64,000 nt of DNA from Mustelus asterias (taxonomy: Eukaryota), in the NCBI RefSeq assembly GCF_964213995.1, contig NW_027590189.1:496001-560000 (forward strand), read 5' to 3'. This document shows, one piece after another, positions 5,568 to 61,477 of the stretch (position 1 is its first letter; every line of letters starts with the position of its first letter). The translations under genes were made by a program, and so were the position numbers. The notes below the pieces were generated by a model that made no database searches, was not told where the DNA came from, and saw only the letters and a program-made list of their open reading frames with translations.

Positions 5568-5818
5568 ATGTGCAAACTTGCGGCAGATGTTCCATATTGG
5601 GTCGACGCTTCAGAATAGGGCAGAAGCTTTGTCAAAATTATTTGTTTACTTGTGACGATCGGCTCCACCATTGTGATTTTCTTTGTTCATTTACAGTCAT
5701 TCCTAATTGCCCTTGAATTGAGTTGCTGAGTTAATCTGCCGTGTTGCAATTAAAGAAAATAACACTGCCCAACCACTCACCACTCCCCTCACTGGACCAA
5801 TTGTCGAATATCACTTGA

Positions 5819-5991
5819 GGTGGAGATGCCTCGCATTGGACTGGGGTGGGCAAAGTAAGAAGTCTCACATCAGGTTAAAGTCCATCACGTTTATTTGGAA
5901 TTTCGAGCTTTCGGAGCGCTGTACCTTCATCAGGTGAGTGATTCCAACTAAATCTGTTGGACATTAAGCTGGTGTTGTGAGACCTCTTACT
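5819..5991. mobile_element. Penelope-derived non-autonomous element with a hammerhead motif and 13-bp target-site duplication
   Basis: Inverted arms; minus strand CAC CUGAUGA AGGUACAGCGCUCC GAAA GCUC at ~5905-5936; flanked by gaatatcacttga (5806-5818) and gaatattacttga (5992-6004); empty site in paralogue near 13583-13597. Confidence 0.8.
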
Positions 5992-7389
5992 GAATATTAC
6001 TTGAAAAGAATATTTTACAAGCGTATGACATTGGCTGTTACATATGCCTCAAGATGCATTCAGAAAAAAAAAAGAATAGAAGTGCTGAAAATCCACTACA
6101 CACTGAGCACAAAAAGAAATGCTCATATTGTGGCTCAGCACACATTTTATCAGTTCGTGCAGTGGCTACAAGAGCAGGTCAGAGGCTGGGAATCCTGCGG
6201 TGAGGAATTCACCTCCTGAGTCTCTAAAACCTGTCCACCATTTACAAGGCACAAGTCAAGAGTGCGATGAAATATTCTCCATTTGTCTGGATAATGCATG
6301 AACTCACCAAATGCATCTTAGAGAGCAGCTTTCAAACCCAGGACCGCTACCATCTGGAAGTTCCCCTCCAAGCTAACCACCACACTGACTTGGAAATATA
6401 TCGCTGTTCCTTCACTGTCACTGGGACAAGGTCCTGGAATAACGAACCCCTTCCCCCCCCCGAACCCGTCCCCCCCCCCCCCCCAACCCCCACCTCCTAC
6501 AGCTCTTTGGATGTGCCGAAACCAATCGACTGCAGCAGTTCAAGAAGGCAGCTCACCACCACCTTCTCAAGAACCAATTAGTGATGCGTAATATTGCTGT
6601 CACAACCAGCTACACCCACATCGCGTTGTTGAATAAAAAGAAACATCCAGTTACTGACCGCGGTTGTGATTATGCAATTCATGTGTCTTTCAGAGTCCAT
6701 GTACCTCAATACAAGAAGACAACCGTTACTTTCAATGTGCTGCCTCAACTTATCTAGAATTTCAAAATATAAAAGCGTTCATCTAGAAAACGTCTGAGGG
6801 AGCAATGATTTCTGCTGTAAATCATAGAATCATAGAATCATAGAATATGCACAATCATTAATACATCATTCTCCTCTTCCGTTGAATAATTTCAAACAGC
6901 TCTTTCCAGTATTTGTTCTTTATTCAACATTTACTTTCTATACATTTAATTAACGCTATGTCCTCATTCTGAATTGAATATCTCTGAAATATACAACATC
7001 GAAATGCAAACATGACTGACTGACAAATGAATTCGAGTCACTGAGTAATACACCTCCCATGATGTTTATTTGAGATTGACCAAAGTCAGTTTTTAAATGA
7101 AATCAAATATCTTAAAAGGGAAGAGATTTCAGAATGATCTGTTAGTTATACTCGATCGCTCTTTATTTGTGTGTGAAGCATTCTGGATCGTTCATCTGTA
7201 GGAAGTCCAGTAGGTCCGCACTGATTCTCGATTTCCTCATCTGTCTGAGTGTTTTTTCCCATTTCTTTATTATGAAGAACAATTTTAAAAGATGCTTCTG
7301 GGAAGTTTGTGCCATTCCTCTAGTTCAGTTACAGTTTCACTTGTGACTGTCTTTGTGAGGACGCAATACAATTAGACATGTTTCAGATG

Positions 7390-10984: not shown

Positions 10985-11150
10985 GTTTCGAGTCCAGACG
11001 ACGCTTTATCAAAGCTTTGACAAAGGGTCATCTGGACTCGAAACGTCATCTCTTTTCTCTCCTTACAGATGCTGCCATAACGGCTGAGATTTTCCAGCAT
11101 TTTCTCTTTTGGTTTCAGATTCCAGCATCCGCAGTAATTTGCTTTTATTT
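10985..11150. mobile_element. Penelope-derived palindromic element with two back-to-back hammerhead ribozyme arms (U3-A8 variant)
   Basis: Centre palindrome tcaaagctttga (11009-11020); + arm AGCU UUGACAA AGGGUCAUCUGGACUC GAAACGUC AUCU; - arm AGCU UUGAUAA AGCGUCGUCUGGACUC GAAAC. Confidence 0.8.
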
Positions 11151-12649: not shown

Positions 12650-14220
12650 CCCTCTTTGATTTTGGTATGCCTCGCATTGAACATCAGCGGGGTTCTTATC
12701 AAACATCAGAGCAGTGTGTGGGGGCGGGGACCGGGGAAGGGATGTGCTTCCACAGGTTGATCTTCCAGATTCAATGTCATCCACCTGCCTCAGAATGTTC
12801 CTGGAGACCCATCCTCTTTCTCAGGAGGTCCATGTCCAGCCGCAGAATTACTATTACCTAAATTGACAGCATCCAACACTCTCGTAGGCAATGAGTTCCA
12901 GGTCCTGAGCACTCGCTGTGGAAAAATGTTGCTTCCAAATCTTCTTCGCCCCCGTCTTGCCCAATATCTTAAAATTTGCCCCTCCCCCTCGAAATTGCCC
13001 TAATCTAGTCCACCTCGATTACATCTCCCCTCAATCTCCTTCGTTTCAATGGACAACAATCCGAGCATCATAAACCAGTAAAACTTTTCTGAAAATAATT
13101 AGCGAAGATAAATCTCTTCATAGAAGCAGGCTGGATTTGGTCAATATTTCTCTGAATTGGTCTAAAATTAGTGGAAATACATTTTGCATCGGAACTAACA
13201 TGGAGTTGGTGAACTGTTGTTAATATATCACAACGAGCTATGAGGCGAACGTGGAACCTTCGGATCTGTAGCCAGAAGCGTTATCCATTGCGCCACTGGC
13301 CCATAGTAACACAAGATGCAGCATTGTTTACATATCGGTGCGAGGCTTCAAAATCGGGGAGACACATGGTCAAAACATATTCGTTTTAGTGAGGAAATGT
13401 TGCATAATTAATGTTTTCTATACTCACTTACAGTCATTCTACTTTGCCTTGAAGTGAGTTAACCTGCTGTGTTGGAATTCGAAACCTGAGTGCCCAAAGC
13501 TTCAGCCTGCTTCTCTGCGTTATCAGTCCAGCGCCAACAACAGGACTCGAAACCGTAACCCTCCCCTCAGTGAATCTACTATTGAACATTACCTGAACAT
13601 AGTACCTTACAATCATATGACATCGGCTCTTATTTGAGCCTCAAAATACATTCAGGAAAACACAGAAGTGCTAAAAATTCACGACAAGCTGAGCAGGAAA
13701 GAAGGCACACCTATTTTGACTCAGCACACATTTTATCAGTTTGTTCCGTGGCTGAAAGAGCAGGTCAGAGGCTGGGAATCGTGCGGGAGTATCTCACCTC
13801 CTTACCCCCAAAAACCAGTCCACGATCTACGTGGCGTAAATCAGGAGTGCGATAGAATATTCCTCACTTGTCTGCATGATGCAGGAATTCACCAAAGGCA
13901 CCTGAGACAGCATCTTCCAAACCCAAGACCGCTTCCACCTGGCAGCAGCCCCCCCCCCCCCACCCCCCTCCCCCCATCCAACGCCACATCGGCAACACCA
14001 CCTCAAGTCCCTCAGCATTCTGATTTGGAAATATATAGCCGTTCCTTCACTGTTATTGGGACAAACTCCTGGAATTCCCTCCCTAACAGCACTGTGGGTG
14101 TACCTGTACATGGACTGCAATGTTTCAAGAAGGGAGCTCACCACCACATTCTCAAGCCTAAATACTGATGGGCAGTACATGTTGATCTAGCCTGCGACAC
14201 CCACATGAACAAAAAGAAAC
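12650..14220 (+). repeat. Segmental duplication copy B (paralogous to ~4500-6640)
   Basis: Co-linear with copy A, including tRNA-Arg and the LINE 3' fragment (ORF 13668-14168 vs 5977-6581). Confidence 0.8.
13234..13302 (-). pseudogene. tRNA-Arg(ACG)-derived pseudogene (anticodon ACA, 3' deletion)
   Basis: GGGCCAGTGGCGCAATGGATAACGCTTCTGGCTACAGATCCGAAGGTTCCACGTTCGCCTCATAGCTCG. Confidence 0.85.
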
Positions 14221-14589
14221 AACCAGCCAGCTCCCTGAACCCGCAATCATGGGGTCAGCTGAAGAGGTGAATGGGGATAAAATGAATGTTACATTGCCAA
14301 TCCTGTTGAACATATCTTTATTTTCGAGCGAGTGTGTTGTGCTGATAGATTCCCCACAGTTTGTGCTCAGGTTCTCAAACCAAACCCCATGTGAACCAAT
14401 CCCTCAATCTGCAATGCCAAGAAATAAACAAAATCAGCAGCTCATAGAATCTCTGTGGGAGAGGGCGGCACAGTGGTTAATTCTGCTGGGTCACAATGCC
14501 AGGGACCTGGTTCTGATTTCTGGATTTGTCACTGTCTATGTGGATGGAGATATGCAGCTTTTTAAAGCTGCAGCAGTAGCTCACCTATC

Positions 14590-14653
14590 GTCCCAGTGAT
14601 CTTTTGGGAAAAGCAGCGGCCTTCTGAACCAGTGAGTGTTCGAGTCCCAGCTT
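14590..14653 (+). pseudogene. Probable heavily decayed tRNA-Arg(CCT) pseudogene
   Basis: GTCCCAGTGATCTTTTGGGAAAAGCAGCGGCCTTCTGAACCAGTGAGTGTTCGAGTCCCAGCT partly aligns with vertebrate tRNA-Arg-CCT (GCCCCAGTGGCCTAATGGATAAGGCACTGGCCTCCTAAGCCAG...TTCGAGTCCCAC). Confidence 0.45.
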
Positions 14654-14741
14654 ATTTTAACACTTAGGCGTCCAACACTGACAAATGCATTTCCTGCCAA
14701 CTAATCAACTAATCCTGGCTATTTCTGGGCAGATATGTTTT

Positions 14742-15061
14742 GGGTGGCACAGTGGTTAGCACTGCTGCCTCAAAATGCCAGGGTCCGAGGTTCAATTCTG
14801 GCTTCGGGACACTGTCTGTGTGGAGTTTGCACATTGTCCCCGCATCTGCATGGGTTTCCTACGGGTGTTCCGGTTTCCTCCCATTGTCCAAAGATGTGCG
14901 GCTAAGGTTGATTGGCCGTGTTAAATTGGCCCTAGTGTCAGGGGGATTAGCAGGGTAAATGCATGGGGTTACAGGAGTTGGGCCTGGATGGGATTGTGGT
15001 CAGTACAGACTTGATGGGCCGAATTGGCCTCCTTCTGTACTGTACGGATTCTATGATTCTA
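14742..15061 (+). mobile_element. HE1-type V-SINE
   Basis: tRNA-like head ggcacagtggttagc...ggttcaattc, V-domain tgtgtggagtttgcacatt...ggtttcctccc, CR1-like tail gatgggccgaa...ttctatga. Confidence 0.88.
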
Positions 15062-15408
15062 ATGGAACCTTATAACATTCTGACCAGATGAAACAGGGTG
15101 GATTCGGAAGAATGTTCTCGTTAGTGGGGAGTCCAGAACTAGGGATTATAGTTTGAGGATAACGGCTGAGGTGATGAGAATTCCTTCAGCCAGAGAGTGG
15201 TGAATCTGCAGAGTTCACTCCCACAGAAAGTAGTTGAGGCCAAACCCTGTGATAGCAAGAGAAATTTAATATAGCTTTTGTGGCTAAATGGCGAATCCGG
15301 ATATTGAATTTGATTATCAGGCATGACAACAATAAATGGTAGTTGATGTTCCAATGACCTATTTCTGTTTTCGATGTTTTGATGTAAATGGGACAGGACG
15401 AAACAGTA

Positions 15409-15490
15409 GGGCTCTGTCTCGGATTTCAACTCGGGATCTCGGTGGTTAAGGCATACCAAAATGCGATTCATACCCCTACACCAAGGAGCC
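15409..15490 (-). pseudogene. tRNA-Pro pseudogene with extra sequence after the anticodon (probable intron relic)
   Basis: GGCTCCTTGGTGTAGGGGTATGAATCGCATTTTGG-TATGCCTTAACCAC-CGAGATCCCGAGTTGAAATCCGAGACAGAGCCC; 82 nt versus 72 nt for mature tRNA-Pro. Confidence 0.7.
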
Positions 15491-15694
15491 TATAAGCAGC
15501 CACTGATTGAAAGAAAAGATGCTCTCATGGCCATTCAAAGCCGATCAGATAACTGCAGCGAAGGTGGAAGATGATGCAGAAATTTAGGAATTCAGGCAGA
15601 ATTTATGGACAGGGAAACAAAGCTAATCTTTTACGTCCATAGCCTTACATTACAACAGGGAAAGGTGAAAAATGTGGGAATTTGAAACGATTGA

Positions 15695-15890
15695 AACATA
15701 GAAACATAGAAAGCCTACAGTGCAGAAAGAGGCCATTTGGCCCATCGAGTCTGCACCGACCACAATCCGACCCAGGCCCTACCCCCATATCCCCACATAT
15801 TTACCCGCTAATCCTCCTAACCTACCCATCTCAGGACACTAAGGGGCAATTTTAGCATGGCCAATCAACCTAACCCGCACATCTTTGGAC
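15695..15890 (-). mobile_element. HE1-type SINE 3' half
   Basis: (catagaaa)n tail, cccatcgagtctgcaccgacc, caacctaacccgcacatctttggac. Confidence 0.8.
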
Positions 15891-15944
15891 CCAGGAGGGA
15901 GGAAATATAACAACAGGAATAGTCTGGAAGTCAGGAGAAATGAA

Positions 15945-16700
15945 ATGATTTGATTTGGTTTTATTTATTATTGTCACATGTATTAGTATACAGTGAAAAA
16001 CATTTTTTCTTGCGCGCTATACAGACAAAGCGTAGCGTTCATAGAGAAGGAAACGGGAGAGTGCAGAATGTGGTGTTGCAGTCATTGTCAGGGTGTAGAG
16101 AAAGATCAACATAATGCAAGGTAGGTCCATTCAAAAGTCTGATGGCAGCAGGGAAGAAGCTGTTCTTGAGTCAGTTGGTACGTGACCTCAGACTTCTGTA
16201 TCTTTCTCCCGAAGGAAGGAGGTGGAAGAGAGAATGTCCGCGGTGCGTGGGGTCCTTAATTATGCTGGCTGCGTTGCCGAGGCAGCAGGAGGCGTAGACA
16301 GAGTCAATGAATGGGAGGCTGGTTTGAGTGATGGATTGGGCTACATTCACGACCTTTTGTAGTTTCTTGCGGTCTTGGGCAGAGCAGGAGCCAAACCACG
16401 CTGTGATACAACGAGAAAGATTATTTTCTAAGGTGCACCTGTAAAACCTGGTGACCGTCGTAGCTGACATGTCAAATTTCCTAAGTCTTCTGAGAAAGTA
16501 GAGGCGTCGGTGGGCTTTCTTCCCCCCATAGTGTCGGCATGGGGGGCAAGGACAGGTTGTTGGTGATCTGGACACCGAAAAACCTGAAGCTCTCGATCCT
16601 TTCTACTTCGTCCCCTTTGATGGAGACAGGGGCACATTCTCCTCTACGCTTTCTGAAGTCAATGACAATCTCCTTCGTTTTGTTGACATTGAGGGAGGGA
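15945..16700 (-). mobile_element. Rex1/Babar-type LINE 3' fragment
   Basis: ORF 16171-16575 KKAHRRLYFLRRLRKF...LPSGERYRSLRSRTN; (tcaaa)n-type tail; reverse complement of the 21540-22275 region. Confidence 0.88.
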
Positions 16701-24792: not shown

Positions 24793-24865
24793 GTTTCTGT
24801 AGTGTAGTGGTTATCGCGTTCGCCTCACACGCGAAAGGTCCCCGGTTCGAAACCGGGCAGAAACA
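24793..24865 (+). tRNA. tRNA-Val(CAC), intact
   Basis: GTTTCTGTAGTGTAGTGGTTATCGCGTTCGCCTCACACGCGAAAGGTCCCCGGTTCGAAACCGGGCAGAAACA; full cloverleaf, single A24G change. Confidence 0.93.
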
Positions 24866-25631: not shown

Positions 25632-25670
25632 AGCCAACGTTTCGAGTTTGGATGACCCTTCATCAGAGCT
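25632..25670 (-). ncRNA. Minimal type I hammerhead ribozyme of a Penelope-like element
   Basis: AGCU CUGAUGA AGGGUCAUCCAAACUC GAAA CGUU GGCU: stem I AGCU/GGCU, intact core, palindromic AACGUU stem III. Confidence 0.85.
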
Positions 25671-27032: not shown

Positions 27033-27105
27033 GTTTCTGTAGTGTAGTGGTTATCATGTTTGCCTAATGCGTGAGAAGTCCCTGGTTCAAAACCAGCTAG
27101 AAACT
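27033..27105 (+). pseudogene. tRNA-Val pseudogene (AAC-type, anticodon arm mutated)
   Basis: gtttctgtagtgtagtggttatcatgtttgcctaatgcgtgagaagtccctggttcaaaaccagctagaaact. Confidence 0.8.
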
Positions 27106-29644: not shown

Positions 29645-29795
29645 GGCTGTCCAAAGAGAGAATGCGACAGCCATTCGCAGTATTTTCCCCTGGTTTCTGT
29701 GGCTATAGCTCATCTTTCATTCCCTCACCCTGCAGTATAAATATCTCCCACTTTCTATGTCTTTTTGCTTTGACAAAAGGTCATCTGGACTCAAT
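29645..29795 (+). mobile_element. Penelope 3' UTR fragment with a decayed U3-A8 hammerhead
   Basis: cagtataaatatctcccactttctatgtctttttGCTTTGACAAAAGGTCATCTGGACTC; GAAA lost. Confidence 0.6.
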
Positions 29796-40472: not shown

Positions 40473-41029
40473 ATTGTCCTGATGGATTCAGACAGCATTA
40501 TCACAATATTCCAAATGTGTTTTTTCCAGGAAAAGATTCAGCGGCTGCATCACTGGAGGCCAGAGATACTCTCCTCAAACTCGGCTCATGTGAGGAATCC
40601 CTCCAATGAGGCTCAGGAATGCTACAACCAGAGTCACGTGACCACCAAGTGTGTAACTGAACAAACTACCGCAACGTTGAAGATGTGTTTCAGTGTGAAA
40701 TGATTTGCTTCACCTGTTGCTTCAGATTTGAGAGGAAATGTCCCTTTCTGGGGTAATTTGACCTTGACCCAGGCACTTTTCAGATCTGAAAGTGATGGCC
40801 TTTAGCACAATCTCAAGGCTGCACAGTACAGAATGAACACTAATCTGTTTCATTCTGCGACTATGCAGTGGTTACATGAGTGATACCTTCCACTAATTAG
40901 CTGCTAGCATCAGTCCAAAAAGGCATTCAGCCTCCCACACTAGTAAGCAAGGCTGGGTATGAATATCTTTCACAACACCAGGTTAAAGTCCAACAGGTTT
41001 ATTTGACAGCAAAAGCCACTAGCTTTTGA

Positions 41030-41732
41030 CGAAAGCTCGGACCAATAGGAAGAGGGGGCGGGGCTGGAGGACCGAGCAACTGGTCCTCCGACCAATCAGA
41101 GTAAATGACGGGCACCCCTCAGCCTGGAGCTCCCTCTGTCTGCGCGTGCGCTCGGCCGCACACTGTCAAGATGGCGATCGTTCACCCCGGCCTGAATCAG
41201 GGAAAAAGCCCGAGCAGCTGTCAACGGTTCAAATACCGAATCCGAGCTTCCCATTGGGGACTTGCGGCCAAACGGGACTTTTATGAAGCCTCCAAGTCCG
41301 CCCACCCACCGGCTCCATCACTCATTCCTGATTTACCCGGTGTTATCGCCCGGAATGAATATTTCCACAACCGCCTCAACCGCGCATGCTCCAGATCACC
41401 ACAGTGCAACTCGCCCTCAGCCCCGCCCCTCATTCACTCCGATTGGTTGGACGACCAGCTGCTCTCGCTCGGTCCTCCAGCCCCGCCCCTCATTCACTCT
41501 GATTGGTTGGCGGACCAGCCACTCTCGCTCGGTCCTCCAGCCCTGCCCCTCATTCACTCAAGTTGGAGGACGAGCCGCTCTCCCTGGTCCTCCAGCCCCG
41601 CCCCCTCATTCACTCCGGTTGGAGGACGAGCTGCTCTCGCTTGGTCCTCCAGCCCCGCCCCTTATTCACTCCGATTGGTTGGAGGACTAGCCGCTCTCCC
41701 TGGTCCTCCGGCCCCTCCCCCTCATTCACTCT
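41030..41732. promoter_or_regulatory. CpG promoter-like region with a tandem CCAAT/GC-box repeat (41414-41732, ~58 nt x5.5)
   Basis: Units cctccagccccgcccctcattcactccgattggttggaggac...; YY1-type aagatggcg at 41168; cgcatgctc. Confidence 0.7.
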
Positions 41733-43999: not shown

Positions 44000-44125
44000 C
44001 ACAACAAAAGCAGAAAATGCTGGAAACTCTCAGCAGGTCTAACAGCATCTGTGGACAGAGAATAGAGCCAACTTTTCGAGTCAGGATGACCCTTCGTCAG
44101 ATTTCAGCATCTGCAGTACTTTGCC
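44000..44125 (-). mobile_element. Penelope-derived short element with hammerhead core
   Basis: CUGACGA AGGGUCAUCCUGACUC GAAA AGUU GGCU at 44100-44066 with a 6-bp stem II; adjoining cagatgctgttagacctgctgag tail. Confidence 0.75.
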
Positions 44126-45444: not shown

Positions 45445-47130
45445 CTTTGGCTACATTCACAACCTTTTGTAGTTCCTTGCGGTCTTGGGCAGAGCAGGAG
45501 TCATACCAAGCCGTGATACAACCAGAAAGAATGCTTTCTATGGTGCATCTGTAAAAGTTGGTGAGAGTCGTAGCTGACATGCCAAATTTCTTTAGTCTTC
45601 TGAGAAAGTAGAGGCATTGGTGGGCTTTCTTAACTATAATGTCAGCATGGGGGGACCAGGACAGGTTGTTGGTGATCTGGACACCTAAAAGCTTGAAGCT
45701 CTTGACCCTTTCTATTTCGTCCCCATTGATGTAGACAGGGCATGTTCTCCTTTACACTTCCTGAAGTCAACGACAATCTCTTTTGTTTTGTTGACATTGA
45801 GGTAGAGATTATTGTTGCCACACCAGTTCACCAGATTCTCTATCTCATTCCTGTACAGGTAGCAGGTAGGGACATTAGATTGTTGGAAAGAGAGGTTGAA
45901 GATGTCTGTGAATACCCTTGCCAGCTGGTCTGCGCAGGACCTGAGTGCTCATCCGGGTACCCTGTCTGGGCCAGTTGCTTTCCATGGGTTGACTTTTGAG
46001 AAGGCTGCTCTGATGTCTGCACTGGTGACCTTGGATACATGTTCATCGGAAGCTTCTGGGATGGGGGGCGTGCTCTCGCTGACCTCTTGCTCATAACGGG
46101 CATGGAATGTGTTGACTTCAGTGGGGAGGGGTGCATTGGAGCTGGTAATTTTGCCTGCGTTCAACTTGTAGCCTTTTATGTCTTGCAGACCATGCCATAG
46201 TCGGCAGGAGTCCATGTGGATAGCCTGGGACTCCAGCTTGGTCCGGTACTGTCTTTTGGCATCTTTGATGGATCATATCTGGTTATCTTATATAGATGAT
46301 GTGGAGATGCAGGCGTTGGACTGGAGTAGGCACGGTAAGGAGTCTCACAACACCAAGTTAAAGTGCAACAGGTTTATTTGGTAGCACAAGCTTTCGGAGT
46401 GTCACTCTTTCTTCATCTGAAGGAGTGACACTCCAAAAGCTTGTGCTACCAAATAAACCTGTTGCAATTTAACCTGCTGTTGTGAGACTTCTTACTGTCT
46501 TGTATAGGTCAGAGTCGCCTGACATGAACGCCTCAGATCTGGACTTCAGCAGACAGTGGCTCTCCCTGTTCATCCATGGTTTCCAGTTGGGAAACACGTG
46601 GATTTGCTTCTTTGGCACACAGTCTTCTACACGCTTACGAATGAGTCAGTTACTGTAGTGGTGCACTCATTCAGGCTGCTCGCAGTTTTAAATACTGTTC
46701 AGTCTATTGACTCTAAGCAGTCCAGTAGGAGATCATCCGATTCCTCAGACCAGCATTGCACCACTTTCTTTGACAGATTCTTCTATTTCAGTTTTTGCTT
46801 TTAAGCTGGGTGCAGGAGCACAGCCGTGATTTGCCAAGGTGTGGGCTGGCGATAGAGCGGTAGGTATGTTTGATATTTGTATAGCAGTGGTCTAGGATGT
46901 TTGGGCCTCTGATGGAACAGGAGATGTGTTGCTGGTATCTTAGTAGAACGCCCTTGAGCTTGGTCTGATTGAAGTTTCAGCTAAGATGAACAAGGCCTCA
47001 GGAGGTTTCGTCTCAAGACTATTTGTGGTCTTCACGTCTGCGTGGGGTGGGAAGTAAACTGCTGTCGGGCTAAGAGGTGAACTCCCATGGAAGGTAATAG
47101 GGGTGGCATTTTAGAATCAGGAATTCTAGG
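45445..47130 (-). mobile_element. Rex1/Babar-type LINE, decayed with internal deletion
   Basis: RLWHGLQDIKGYK, KVNPWKATGPDRVPG, KAHQCLYFLRRL; endonuclease-region remnants to ~47130. Confidence 0.85.
46296..46497. mobile_element. Penelope-derived fold-back element (161-bp palindrome 46335-46495) with 10-bp TSD
   Basis: Arms gtaaggagtctcacaac...ggagtgtcactc / gagtgacactcc...gttgtgagacttcttac; TSD tcttatatag (46286-46295) / tcttgtatag (46498-46507); same family as 5819-5991. Confidence 0.85.
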
Positions 47131-48230: not shown

Positions 48231-49224
48231 CTATCATAAATCGTGTCATTTTAAACGTCTCTATTAAACCTCCCCATCCTGATCTAAGACAGAAAACCCA
48301 TGTTTTTCCTGCCCTGAAGAATCATATGGACTCAAAATGTTCACTGTTTCTCTCAAACAGATGCTGCCAGACCTGCTGAGTTTTTCTGCTTTTATCCCTG
48401 TTTTTCCTTTTATACTCAATCAGAAACCCTTAAATCGGGTCGCACAGAGACTGAGAGAGATACAGAGGAGAGACAGAAAGACAGAGAAAAATTGAGAGAG
48501 ATTTTAAAAAACAGAAAGTTGAGGTAGTCAAAGATAAAAGCTGAGAAACAGAGGAAACAAGCAATTCAGAGAGAATGATATAAAATCTAAGGGAGCAGGC
48601 TATCAGTTCCTGGCTATGGGGAGCAGAGGGAACTCAGTGACTGATCCACAAATACAGCTCATTATATCCGGAATGGAGACTCTGAACAGGAATAACAGGC
48701 TCATTTGTAAATATCACCGCAATGTGATCCTGTGTGACTCTGATCCTGTGAGACTCTGCCCTGTCTCTGTGGATAGATATAAGCCGCACTGACAGATGTT
48801 CTCACCAGATTGTGGCCCCTGGATTTATTTTCTGCCCAGAAGTGAGATGCGCGGTTTGCAACCGGCAGCAGAGAAACAGGAAGTTGTATTTCCTGAAAAT
48901 GAAACAGGCGACATCCGTTTGATGTTATCACAGTGAACGGTCTTCCTGTCTGTGAGGGTGAACTCACTCTGACAGCATCAAGAACAACCACACAGATTGC
49001 TGCCGCTCTCAGCATTACATTCACCTCCATTCCCATGTGAAACAATAAACAAAGATTATTTGGGTTTTTAACAGTCAATGAATTGGGAGCTGGACTGAGG
49101 GTCATCACTGGGAGAGATGAGGGGGAAATTATAGAAAGGAATGAGTTTTCCCCAAAGAGGGATATCAGAAAATGAGAGTGAGTCAGGGCCTGTCAGAGGA
49201 AGTGGGAGAGAGAAGTGGGGCGAC

Positions 49225-53039: not shown

Positions 53040-53365
53040 CTCCCAGCCACCGCCTGACGCTGACTCCGCTTCTCCGGGACAAACAAGCGCCAAGGACAGC
53101 AATGACACTGCGCATGCTCCACATCACAATGCCCGGGCACTGATTGACGGCAGCTCCGGACCAATAGGACGAGGGGGCGGAGCAGCGGCTGGTCCTCCAA
53201 CCAATCGGAGTGAATGGGGGGCGGGGCTGGAGGACAGTGCGGGAGCGGCTGGTCCTCCAACCAATTGGAGTGAATGAGGGGCGGGATCTGAAGCATGCGC
53301 AGAGCGGGTAATGGTGACGGACGGCCGGGTTTAACTTGGAAGCGAGATCAATACGAGGTAGAGGG
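53040..53365. promoter_or_regulatory. Probable bidirectional CpG promoter between divergent ZNF-C and ZNF-D
   Basis: NRF1-like gcgcatgctc and gcatgcgca at the two ends, three CCAAT + GC-box modules, plus-strand donor gag|gtagag at ~53358. Confidence 0.65.
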
Positions 53366-56545: not shown

Positions 56546-56547
56546 TA

Positions 56548-56733
56548 TAAAAGCAAATTACTGCGGATGCTGGAATCTGAAACCAAGAGAGAAAATGCTG
56601 GAAAATCTCAGCAGGTCTGGCAGCATCTGTAAGGAGAGAAAAGAGCTGATGTTTCTTGTCGAGATGACCCTTTGTCAAAGCTCTGAAACATCAGTTCTTT
56701 TCTCTCCATACAGATGCTGCCAGACCTGCTGAG
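56548..56733. mobile_element. Penelope-derived fold-back element with a U3-A8 hammerhead (56682-56644, minus strand)
   Basis: AGCU UUGACAA AGGGUCAUCUCGACAA GAAA CAUC AGCU; inverted cagatgctgccagacctgctgag arms. Confidence 0.8.
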
Positions 56734-57220
56734 AATGGGGAGAGAGTGTGTGGGATGGAGATTTCCAGCTTTTGGGGAATGAGAGAGGTAAGAATGTTCC
56801 GTAGAAATTGTCTGTTCTGAATTTCTAACCTGTTCTGACACTGATGACTTTTGGAAACTCATTTTACAGGATATTGAAAAAGGAATCACAGGCCAAAATC
56901 TCAAACGTCACGTCTAGACGTGACAGAGTCATATTCCTTGGGACCTCAATATCATCGGACTTTGAATCCAGAAGGAGAAATGATTGTCCAGTCTGTCAAT
57001 TTGAAAAGATTTGAAAGGTCAGTGTGAGTGAAAAAGTATCAACACACTGCCACACTTGAGTGAGAGTGTTCCAATGCACTGACTAAAGAGCTTTAACCAG
57101 TTACACAGTCTGAATAAATATCGCACCATTCACAGCGGGGAGAGACTGTAATCTTGTTCTGTGTGTGGACGAAGTTTCAACTGATTGTCCACCTAAGAGA
57201 GAGGTAAGGACACCTGCACC

Positions 57221-60315: not shown

Positions 60316-61152
60316 AAAGAGACATAGGATGCAAAGCTGGGCTGAAAAATGGCAAATGGAGTTTAACCCTGATAAGTGTGAGGTGATTCATTTTGGTAGG
60401 ACTAATTTAAATGTGGATTACAGGGTCAAAGGTAGGGTTCTGAAGACTGTGGAGGAACAGAGAGATCTTGGGGTCCATATCCACAGATCTCTAAAGGTTG
60501 CCACTCAAGTGGATAGAGCTGTGAAGAAGGCTTACAGTGTGTTAGCTTTTATTAACAGGGGGTTGGAGTTTAAGAGCCGTGGGGTTATGCTGCAACTGAA
60601 CAGGACCTTGGTGAGACCACATTTGGAATATTGTGTGCAGTTCTGGTCACCTCACTATAAGAAGGACGTGGAAGTGCTGGAAAGAGTGCAGAGGAGATTT
60701 ACCAGGATGCTGCCTGGTTTGGAGGGTAGATCTTATGAGGAAAGGTTGAGGGAGCTAGGGCTGTTCTCTCTGGAGCGGAGGAGGCTGAGGGGAGACTTAA
60801 GAGAGGTTTATAAAATGATGAAGGGGATAGATAGAGTGAACGTTCAAAGACTCTTTCCTCGGGTGGATGGAGCTATTACAAGGGGGCATAACTATAGGGT
60901 TCATGGTGGGAGATATAGGAAGGATATCAGAGGTAGGTTCTTTACGCAGAGAGTGGTTGGGGTGTGGAATGGACTGCCTGCAGTGATAGTGGAGTCAAGA
61001 CACTTTAGGAACATTTAAGCGGTTGTTGGATAGGCACATGGAGCACACCAGGATGATAGGGAGTGGGGTAGCTTGATCTTGGTTTCAGATAAAGCTCGGC
61101 ACAACATCGTGGGCCGAAGGGCCTGTTCTGTGCTGTACTGTTCTATGTTCTA
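60316..61152 (+). mobile_element. Young CR1 3' fragment, near-identical to 28275-29120
   Basis: ORF 60299-61018 nearly matches the C-terminus of ORF 27542-29038; same 3' UTR. Confidence 0.95.
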
Positions 61153-61477
61153 AATAAACCTGTTGAACTTTGACGAGGTGTTGTCAGACTTCTTACTGTC
61201 CATGACAGGAAGCAGTGAGCATAGATCTGTCAATCAGCTTCAATCAGCACCTTCAAGACAATTTGGAGGGTGAATATTAGATACAGCAGAGTGAGAATGG
61301 AGGGAGAGTGTGTGGGATGAAGATTCACAGCTTTTGGAGAATGACAGAGGAAAGAATGTTCCATAGGAGCTAGAATTCTCTGTTCTGAATTTCTGTCCTT
61401 TGTTTTTACAAAAGTGTTTCACAGGATATCAGAAGAGGAGGAATCTCAGAGAGAACTTTTGGCCCCTCCTCTGTCTC

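Follow-up and report, generated by a model that had tools for sequence, protein, structure and literature searches.

The hammerhead-like motif at 10985-11051 is a degraded version of the pseudo-LTR hammerhead ribozyme of an abundant Penelope-like retrotransposon, an element whose ORF combines a reverse transcriptase (RT) with a GIY-YIG endonuclease. The motif lies in a 64,000-nt stretch of DNA (the window) and belongs to a subfamily, here called A, in which core positions 3 and 8 are occupied by U and A instead of C and G, the bases that form a pair in the hammerhead (PMC3884650). The explanation that we favour, and hold to be probable, is that the motif is the decayed pseudo-LTR hammerhead of this one subfamily, in which a single compensatory U3-A8 swap kept a predicted dimer-dependent, slow ribozyme working, and that the element's RNA starts there. 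The relevant copies in the window, including those of a C3-G8 sister subfamily, B, are as follows.

11013..11051 (+): minimal type I hammerhead of subfamily A (U3-A8); whole ribozyme with one mismatch in the stem I 3' strand
11013-11016, 11017-11023 and 11024 (+): its stem I 5' strand, core and extra A
11025-11039, 11040-11043 and 11043-11046 (+): its stem II, GAAA and palindromic ACGU
11047 and 11048-11051 (+): the C after which the cut is predicted, and the stem I 3' strand
11052..11148 (+): remaining pseudo-LTR (the tail) to the usual 3' end of the family; likely zone where reverse transcription starts
10985..11016 (-): truncated inverted second arm of the same insertion as the 11013 (+) arm; stem II mutated, no cut site, AGCT centre in common
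29666..29792 (+): subfamily A copy with native upstream pseudo-LTR; TATAAAT at 29736-29742; ribozyme ends early in stem II
56547..56686 (-): subfamily A copy with decayed ribozyme (U3 = 56678) and tail
56685-56734 (+): inverted partial copy adjoining 56547-56686
25632..25670 (-): sister subfamily B ribozyme, C3-G8, cut triplet GUU, stem II decayed
44005..44101 (-): sister subfamily B ribozyme, C3-G8, with tail; 5' stem I gone
5905..5933 (-): CUGANGA hammerhead of an unrelated, far commoner repeat family, C

The first-pass annotation had described four separate arms reading UUGA(C/U)AA in the window. Their cores are present at 11017-11023 (+), 11012-11006 (-), 29770-29776 (+) and 56678-56672 (-), and a 16-nt pattern matched exactly those four arms (mean 0.00 in 100 shuffles), but none of the four is intact. 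Furthermore, the 11013 (+) and 11016 (-) arms, which share the AGCT at 11013-11016, form one palindromic insertion, and the window therefore holds three insertions, not four. Comparing the window with itself, we found an inverted self-match of 90% identity at 10985-11044 and 92.9% identity between 56547-56686 and the 140 nt that include the tail at 11052-11148. Relative to the family majority, the 11013 (+) arm has the mismatch in the stem I 3' strand, the 11016 (-) arm has a broken stem II and ends before the GUC site, the 29767 (+) arm has lost G10.1 and everything from GAAAC onward, and in the 56682 (-) arm stem II is broken and the ACGU has decayed. The CUGANGA motifs that had been listed as relatives are present at 25666 (-), 44100 (-) and 5933 (-); the arms at 25670 and 44100 do belong to the C3-G8 sister subfamily, but the one at 5933 comes from a different repeat family. 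With respect to target-site duplications, one case was clear by eye, in an insertion common to the loci L241-L253, and none of 6 nt or longer was found at the three window insertions.

Rfam covariance models, applied to the window with its decayed arms, returned no hammerhead among 16 hits at E values up to 1. Two microRNA-like Rfam hits, at 46366 and 56625, were rejected because they are palindromic insertions of these hammerhead repeats. Several further features of the window were recorded on their own account. More distant relatives of the repeat to which the 10985-11148 insertion belongs, at 592-734 and 48316-48386, have the tail in common but a different or decayed core; polypyrimidine-AG stretches resembling splice acceptors occur within the tail at 11052-11070 and 11102-11119, as well as in the 5' region of the long copy L256, where they lie farther downstream; a tRNA gene at 24793-24865 (+) (63 bits in Rfam, anticodon CAC by eye) is accompanied by a decayed copy at 27033-27105 (+) (37.6 bits); and a GC-rich unit of ~55-60 nt forms tandem and inverted repeats at 41026-41723 and 53144-53265. 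Family C occupies 5816-5992, 46297-46499, 40970-41016 and 61148-61200, has 138,901 exact matches to one 35-mer genome-wide, and comprises subfamilies whose stem II sequences differ yet still pair.

The subfamily A motif has the core of a Penelope-type minimal hammerhead, as first proposed: N3-UGAN-N8-A with a Watson-Crick 3-8 pair, together with GAAA. In the predicted fold, stem II is closed by G10.1-C11.1, follows one unpaired base after A9, and consists of 5 bp with a 5-nt loop. The AGCU/AGCU stem I, the palindromic ACGU (the 15.1-16.1 stretch) and the GUC triplet attributed to the arms hold for the family majority and are broken in all four window arms. The 39-nt consensus given in the first-pass annotation is itself the majority of 22 long copies that were chosen on their endonuclease, not on the ribozyme, and it occurs exactly in 17 of 27 core-anchored U3-A8 loci and in 13 of 93 tail-anchored arms. 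Minimal hammerheads of Penelope-like elements cleave weakly, as dimers (PMC4209133; PMC6765202). The predicted lowest-energy monomer pairs core bases with the cut site and forms no hammerhead; this buried-core fold would fit an inactive monomer and is no proof of an active dimer.

To determine how the 3-8 pair is distributed, we tabulated Y3 and R8 across the 3.68-Gb genome searched, using exact matches to one fixed anchor (n = 3322). U3-A8 accounted for 3020 of the 3322 matches, with C3-A8 in 97, C3-G8 in 47, U3-G8 in 47, and other bases at position 3 or 8 in 111. U3 and A8 thus travel together and are not independent (odds ratio 31, p = 5e-41 from the 2x2 counts), C3-G8 being observed 47 times where 4 would be expected if the positions were independent. 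The loci examined in each class carried the sister (B) tail in 28 of 30 cases for C3-G8 and the A tail in 30 of 30 for U3-G8 and 23 of 30 for C3-A8. Since tail types split in this manner, the 3-8 association reflects two subfamilies and not repeated changes.

Samples drawn by other parts of the element gave similar proportions. A tail-anchored sample, chosen without regard to the ribozyme, yielded 93 arms among the first 100 matches listed of 8939, all within the initial 13 Mb of a single contig; both sites were readable in 79 of these arms, and 72 of the 79 were U3-A8. In a protein-anchored sample, the ribozyme was readable in 25 of 30 loci and was U3-A8 in all 25. Two capture-recapture estimates put the number of subfamily A arms at ~13,600 and ~16,300, both likely lower bounds, so that the suggestion of a high-copy variant is borne out at ~14,000-16,000 arms genome-wide, and a CUGANGA-only search would indeed miss this ribozyme. 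The family is also present in four large public runs, each labelled as a different organism, whose contigs contain it; one of the public runs may be the source of the searched genome itself. In two of these four runs no other letter reached 4% for U3 or A8, and in each of the other two at least one of U3 and A8 was unchanged, as deduced from per-kind tallies. In four further runs, whose RNA nature is a guess, C3 made up 0.4-9% of depth and A8 had no listed variant at 2%.

One pattern ending stem II in CCGAAAC was used to look for another U3-A8 family of independent origin (117 matches versus 12 for the reversed control); the 100 matches listed were nearly all subfamily A variants, so that this single pattern revealed no such family. 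Separately, a cluster of a shorter variant (L241-L253; contigs C71, C88, C91, C108, C109 and C112) proved to be one subfamily A insertion within segmental duplications: its 13 loci have common flanks, and the segment spans at least 6 kb in at least 13 places at 91-99.9% identity.

The U3-A8 state could have arisen by decay of C3-G8 copies after their insertion, and we used subfamily B as a control for such decay, counting by eye the 100 matches listed of 1424 anchored subfamily B matches. G8 lies within a CpG in subfamily B and has become A in 21 of the 100 listed copies, as decay would require. The resulting states were C-G 70, C-A 21, U-G 4, U-A 1 and other 4, and a scripted count of the first 30 gave C-G 20, C-A 6, U-G 3, G-G 1 and U-A 0. 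Decay through the C7-G8 CpG therefore produces C-A mismatches, while U-A arises in only ~1% of copies, compared with 3020 of 3322 anchored and 25 of 25 protein-anchored copies in subfamily A. These counts refute post-insertion decay, to which we give virtually no chance. Because decay in subfamily B yields C-A in 21 of 100 copies but U-A in only 1, U3-A8 came from the source element, as had been proposed. The accompanying claim of covariation in several separate copies did not survive, since all U3-A8 copies stem from one source lineage and hence represent one compensatory event in this genome.

Subfamily A is less diverged than subfamily B at both non-CpG sites (4.8% versus 6.4%) and CpG sites (14% versus 28%), all values being biased low by the exact anchors; by this sequence measure, subfamily A is the younger of the two. 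The two subfamilies differ at 5 of 39 ribozyme positions, namely 3, 8, one loop II base, N17 (GUC in A versus GUU in B) and N1.1 (a U-A pair in stem I of A versus U-G in B), and the other core bases of subfamily A are identical to those of its C3-G8 sister. All five differences are compatible with the hammerhead fold. The chance that 5 random differences in 39 sites would hit both 3 and 8 is 0.013, and higher given the CpG at G8. Because the swap is one event with a chance of 0.013 or more, part of the case for selection on function comes from the fold being unharmed by the other changes. U3-G8 copies were more diverged (4.3%) than U3-A8 copies (2.5%, p = 0.0007) and C3-A8 copies (2.8%, p = 0.007; rank test p = 0.057), with no clear difference from another single-mutant control (3.7%, p = 0.29). 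In addition, the CpG at position 7 has decayed in 9 of 47 U3-G8 copies, which together with their somewhat greater divergence hints weakly that a wobble intermediate came earlier.

The same comparison bears on whether the U3-A8 ribozyme is inactive or almost so, with G8A (due to CpG decay) and C3U (due to chance) fixed in a source element that went on spreading because cleavage is dispensable, and with the sequence kept for promoter function or protein binding. Because the A and B tails differ at 8 of 96 sites, the whole region is conserved and not the ribozyme alone, and only 1 of 83 insertions starts near the cut site. Ribozyme mutants leave insertion unaffected in vitro (PMC11167929), and Naiad elements thrive without canonical hammerheads (PMC8557442). 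Nevertheless, none of the five A-B differences alters an invariant core base, two of the five improve the fold on paper, and the U3-A8 swap also occurs in unrelated natural hammerheads, which leads us to regard a dead ribozyme as quite improbable.

The ribozyme is part of a coding element. Of the endonuclease-anchored loci, 26 of 30 have it in a pseudo-LTR that follows the ORF, as do 25 of 30 protein-anchored loci, and long copies carry, upstream of the ribozyme, a pyrimidine-rich 3' UTR preceded by the endonuclease. In one long copy (L256), a partial pseudo-LTR upstream of the ORF and a full one downstream form a partial tandem, so that the ribozyme precedes the ORF there as well; a second clean pseudo-LTR-to-ORF junction was not found in ten long loci. 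A 518-aa stop-free frame matched the Pfam models RVT_1 (E = 1.7e-4) and GIY-YIG (E = 1.4e-3), with both matches below the curated cut-offs, and reading by eye identified a DKG motif, a CX4CxxC linker and then CCHH (CxxC..H..H) in the endonuclease. On motifs, a Neptune-like placement of the element would fit. Among 83 scored of 80,735 candidates, the best ORF matches besides the query (30 matches at 29 loci) were 75-85% identical and most contained stops, the best of these other copies having 85% identity and a 732-aa open frame. Since the best copies were this divergent and mostly interrupted by stops, no young active source element was found among the 83 candidates scored of 80,735, and the subfamily A element family looks old from its sequences. 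Inverted partners were present for 51 of 93 arms in the tail-anchored sample. We rejected a non-LTR retrozyme, which forms non-coding tandem arrays, because the copies lie scattered, singly or inverted, and run on into the ORF, and no array occurred in 83 insertions.

The 5' ends of the copies cluster at the first base of the ribozyme. Measured relative to U3, 45 of 83 insertions begin at -5 to 0, 20 more than 10 nt further upstream, 12 at +1 to +26 and 4 at -10 to -6, while a single insertion begins no more than 4 nt from the cut site (+31) and a single one beyond it. The break rate is accordingly 0.109 per base at -5 to 0, compared with 0.004 downstream and 0.005 upstream, and the first A of stem I is the exact 5' end of 31 of 93 arms. 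Of 30 tail-anchored arms of subfamily B, 12 begin at -4 to 0, and 8 of these begin at -4. The ribozyme start is among the leading loose ends in contigs of all eight public runs, labelled as eight organisms. At the other end of the copies, 3' ends in four public runs fall into two zones ~40 nt apart, which correspond to the known tail.

Both A and B have a TATAAAT 30 nt upstream of the first A of stem I, though the spacer has diverged, and the window copy at 29666-29792 has this spacing between its TATAAAT and the first base of its ribozyme. Family C supports the pattern in part: of 25 parsed loci, 10 have a TATA 35 nt upstream of C3, whereas other subfamilies lack it, and most copies extend further upstream. 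The first base of the ribozyme is likely also that of the subfamily A transcript, a start site that is deduced from DNA junctions and mapped to within 2-3 nt, and the uncut RNA is likely the template for insertion. In assembled contigs of the four runs guessed to be RNA, neither a transcript start nor a cut was visible.

The pile-up of 5' ends could have another origin even if the ribozyme reading holds, either RT stalling or strand switching at the self-complementary AGCT, or a splice acceptor, in place of a transcription start. For stalling or switching, the AGCT is palindromic and is repeated after the cut site, and 10 of 93 arms are perfect AGCT-centred palindromes. However, the second AGCT, at the cut site, has no pile-up, and because 16 of the 42 arms without an inverted partner also end at -5 to 0, the pile-up is not solely a palindrome effect. 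For a splice acceptor, the core is preceded by a polypyrimidine tract and an AG, directly after which, at -2, 10 of 93 arms break, and in D. virilis an intron ends where helix I begins on its 5' side (PMC4209133); against this, no common upstream exon was seen by eye at the junctions. The 30-nt TATA spacing kept in A and B despite the diverged spacer further argues against these other origins. We therefore consider these other origins of the pile-up unlikely, though clearly less so than a dead ribozyme.

Under the explanation that we favour, a transcript starting at a ribozyme that the swap kept working, the following sequence of events may be proposed. G8, sitting in a mutable CpG, would have changed to A, and G8A together with C3U would have restored a Watson-Crick 3-8 pair; the same lineage would have gained a Watson-Crick stem I pair and GUC in place of GUU. 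The promoter of the pseudo-LTR would start the RNA at the ribozyme. In Drosophila, the Penelope promoter likewise lies within the pseudo-LTR, where it is TATA-less, and a 5' UTR intron is known (PMC2377424). Two such RNAs could pair through the palindromic ACGU, form stem III and be cut after GUC. The element's protein would begin reverse transcription ~90-135 nt downstream on uncut RNA and run off the 5' end, which would give copies of ~140 nt. Two short copies joined at AGCT would produce palindromes such as 10985-11148, palindromes at inverted junctions being known (PMC3846280), whereas long copies would arise from read-through or tandem RNA. Cutting, if any, would trim the first 35 nt of promoter-initiated RNA or separate read-through tandem units, and would not be required for the insertion template. 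In an anole element, reverse transcription has two internal start sites on the RNA, the ribozyme depends on the protein, and the template is chiefly uncut RNA (PMC11167929).

The U3-A8 variant itself is already published, including in Penelope-like elements. Natural U3-A8 hammerheads exist, with in vitro activity cited (Perreault et al. 2011, PMC3088659), and the Cercyon Penelope-like elements of Schistosoma mansoni were described as having "U3-A8 instead of C3-G8" in ~1,300 hits, with low cleavage of dimers (Cervera and de la Pena 2014, PMC4209133). As described there, Cercyon resembles subfamily A in its U3-A8 pair, minimal type I fold, 4-bp stem I, extra base between positions 9 and 10.1, G10.1-C11.1 pair, palindromic 15.2-16.2 and location in pseudo-LTRs, as well as in its mostly dispersed, single, truncated copies and its opposite-strand pairs near each other. 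Subfamily A differs from this description in having a stem II of 5 bp instead of 7-8 bp, in forming one homogeneous set of ~14,000-16,000 arms in contrast with ~1,300 heterogeneous hits, and in having a direct C3-G8 sister for comparison and a vertebrate host, likely a cartilaginous fish. Its U3-A8 pair probably originated independently of that of Schistosoma Cercyon. The hammerheads of Perreault et al. show the same compensatory swap of the 3-8 tertiary pair. Since the subfamily A motif differs in lacking its own stem III and an evident loop-loop contact, the rates of full-length ribozymes may not carry over to it.

The green anole Poseidon element PAc (Frangieh et al. 2024, PMC11167929), as portrayed in its report, is similar in its pseudo-LTR hammerhead, its two 3' end points ~40 nt apart downstream, and its insertions that include the uncut ribozyme. 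PAc has C3-G8 and an ORF that starts in stem II, whereas the subfamily A element has U3-A8 and the Neptune-like CX4CxxC linker. The Neptune clade (Craig et al. 2021, PMC8557442), in the published description, has an RT followed by a C-terminal GIY-YIG domain, DKG, a CX2-5CxxC linker and CCHH, along with tandem and inverted pseudo-LTRs and an optional tail; the likeness is one of motifs, and Nematis may be an alternative placement. A partial literature search found no report of the subfamily A family or of a start site at the ribozyme, and Lunse et al. and the supplements of PMC4209133 may list the family.

The role of the hammerhead in Penelope-like elements has been stated as an open question (PMC8557442). 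We tentatively put forward, as a possibility about which we have considerable doubt, that the genomic copies preserve, like fossils, the form of the element's RNA, whose transcription would begin at the hammerhead's first base 30 nt below the TATA box and which would be copied into the genome only when uncut, and that the hammerhead acts as a 5'-terminal switch, which would remove the capped first 35 nt when two of the element's RNAs pair, would limit the element's own translation or insertion, and would have been rescued by the U3-A8 swap before ~15,000 copies accumulated. Subfamily A adds a vertebrate example of the U3-A8 pair and is a reminder that CUGANGA-only searches undercount hammerheads. 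The sister subfamilies A and B, with 5 of 39 positions different, are a natural matched pair with respect to the effect of the swap and its companion changes on cleavage. The less ordinary part of the finding, and the one worth following up, is the pattern of 5' ends: their pile-up at the ribozyme start and near absence at the cut site support, on genomic grounds, the finding made in vitro that the template is uncut RNA.
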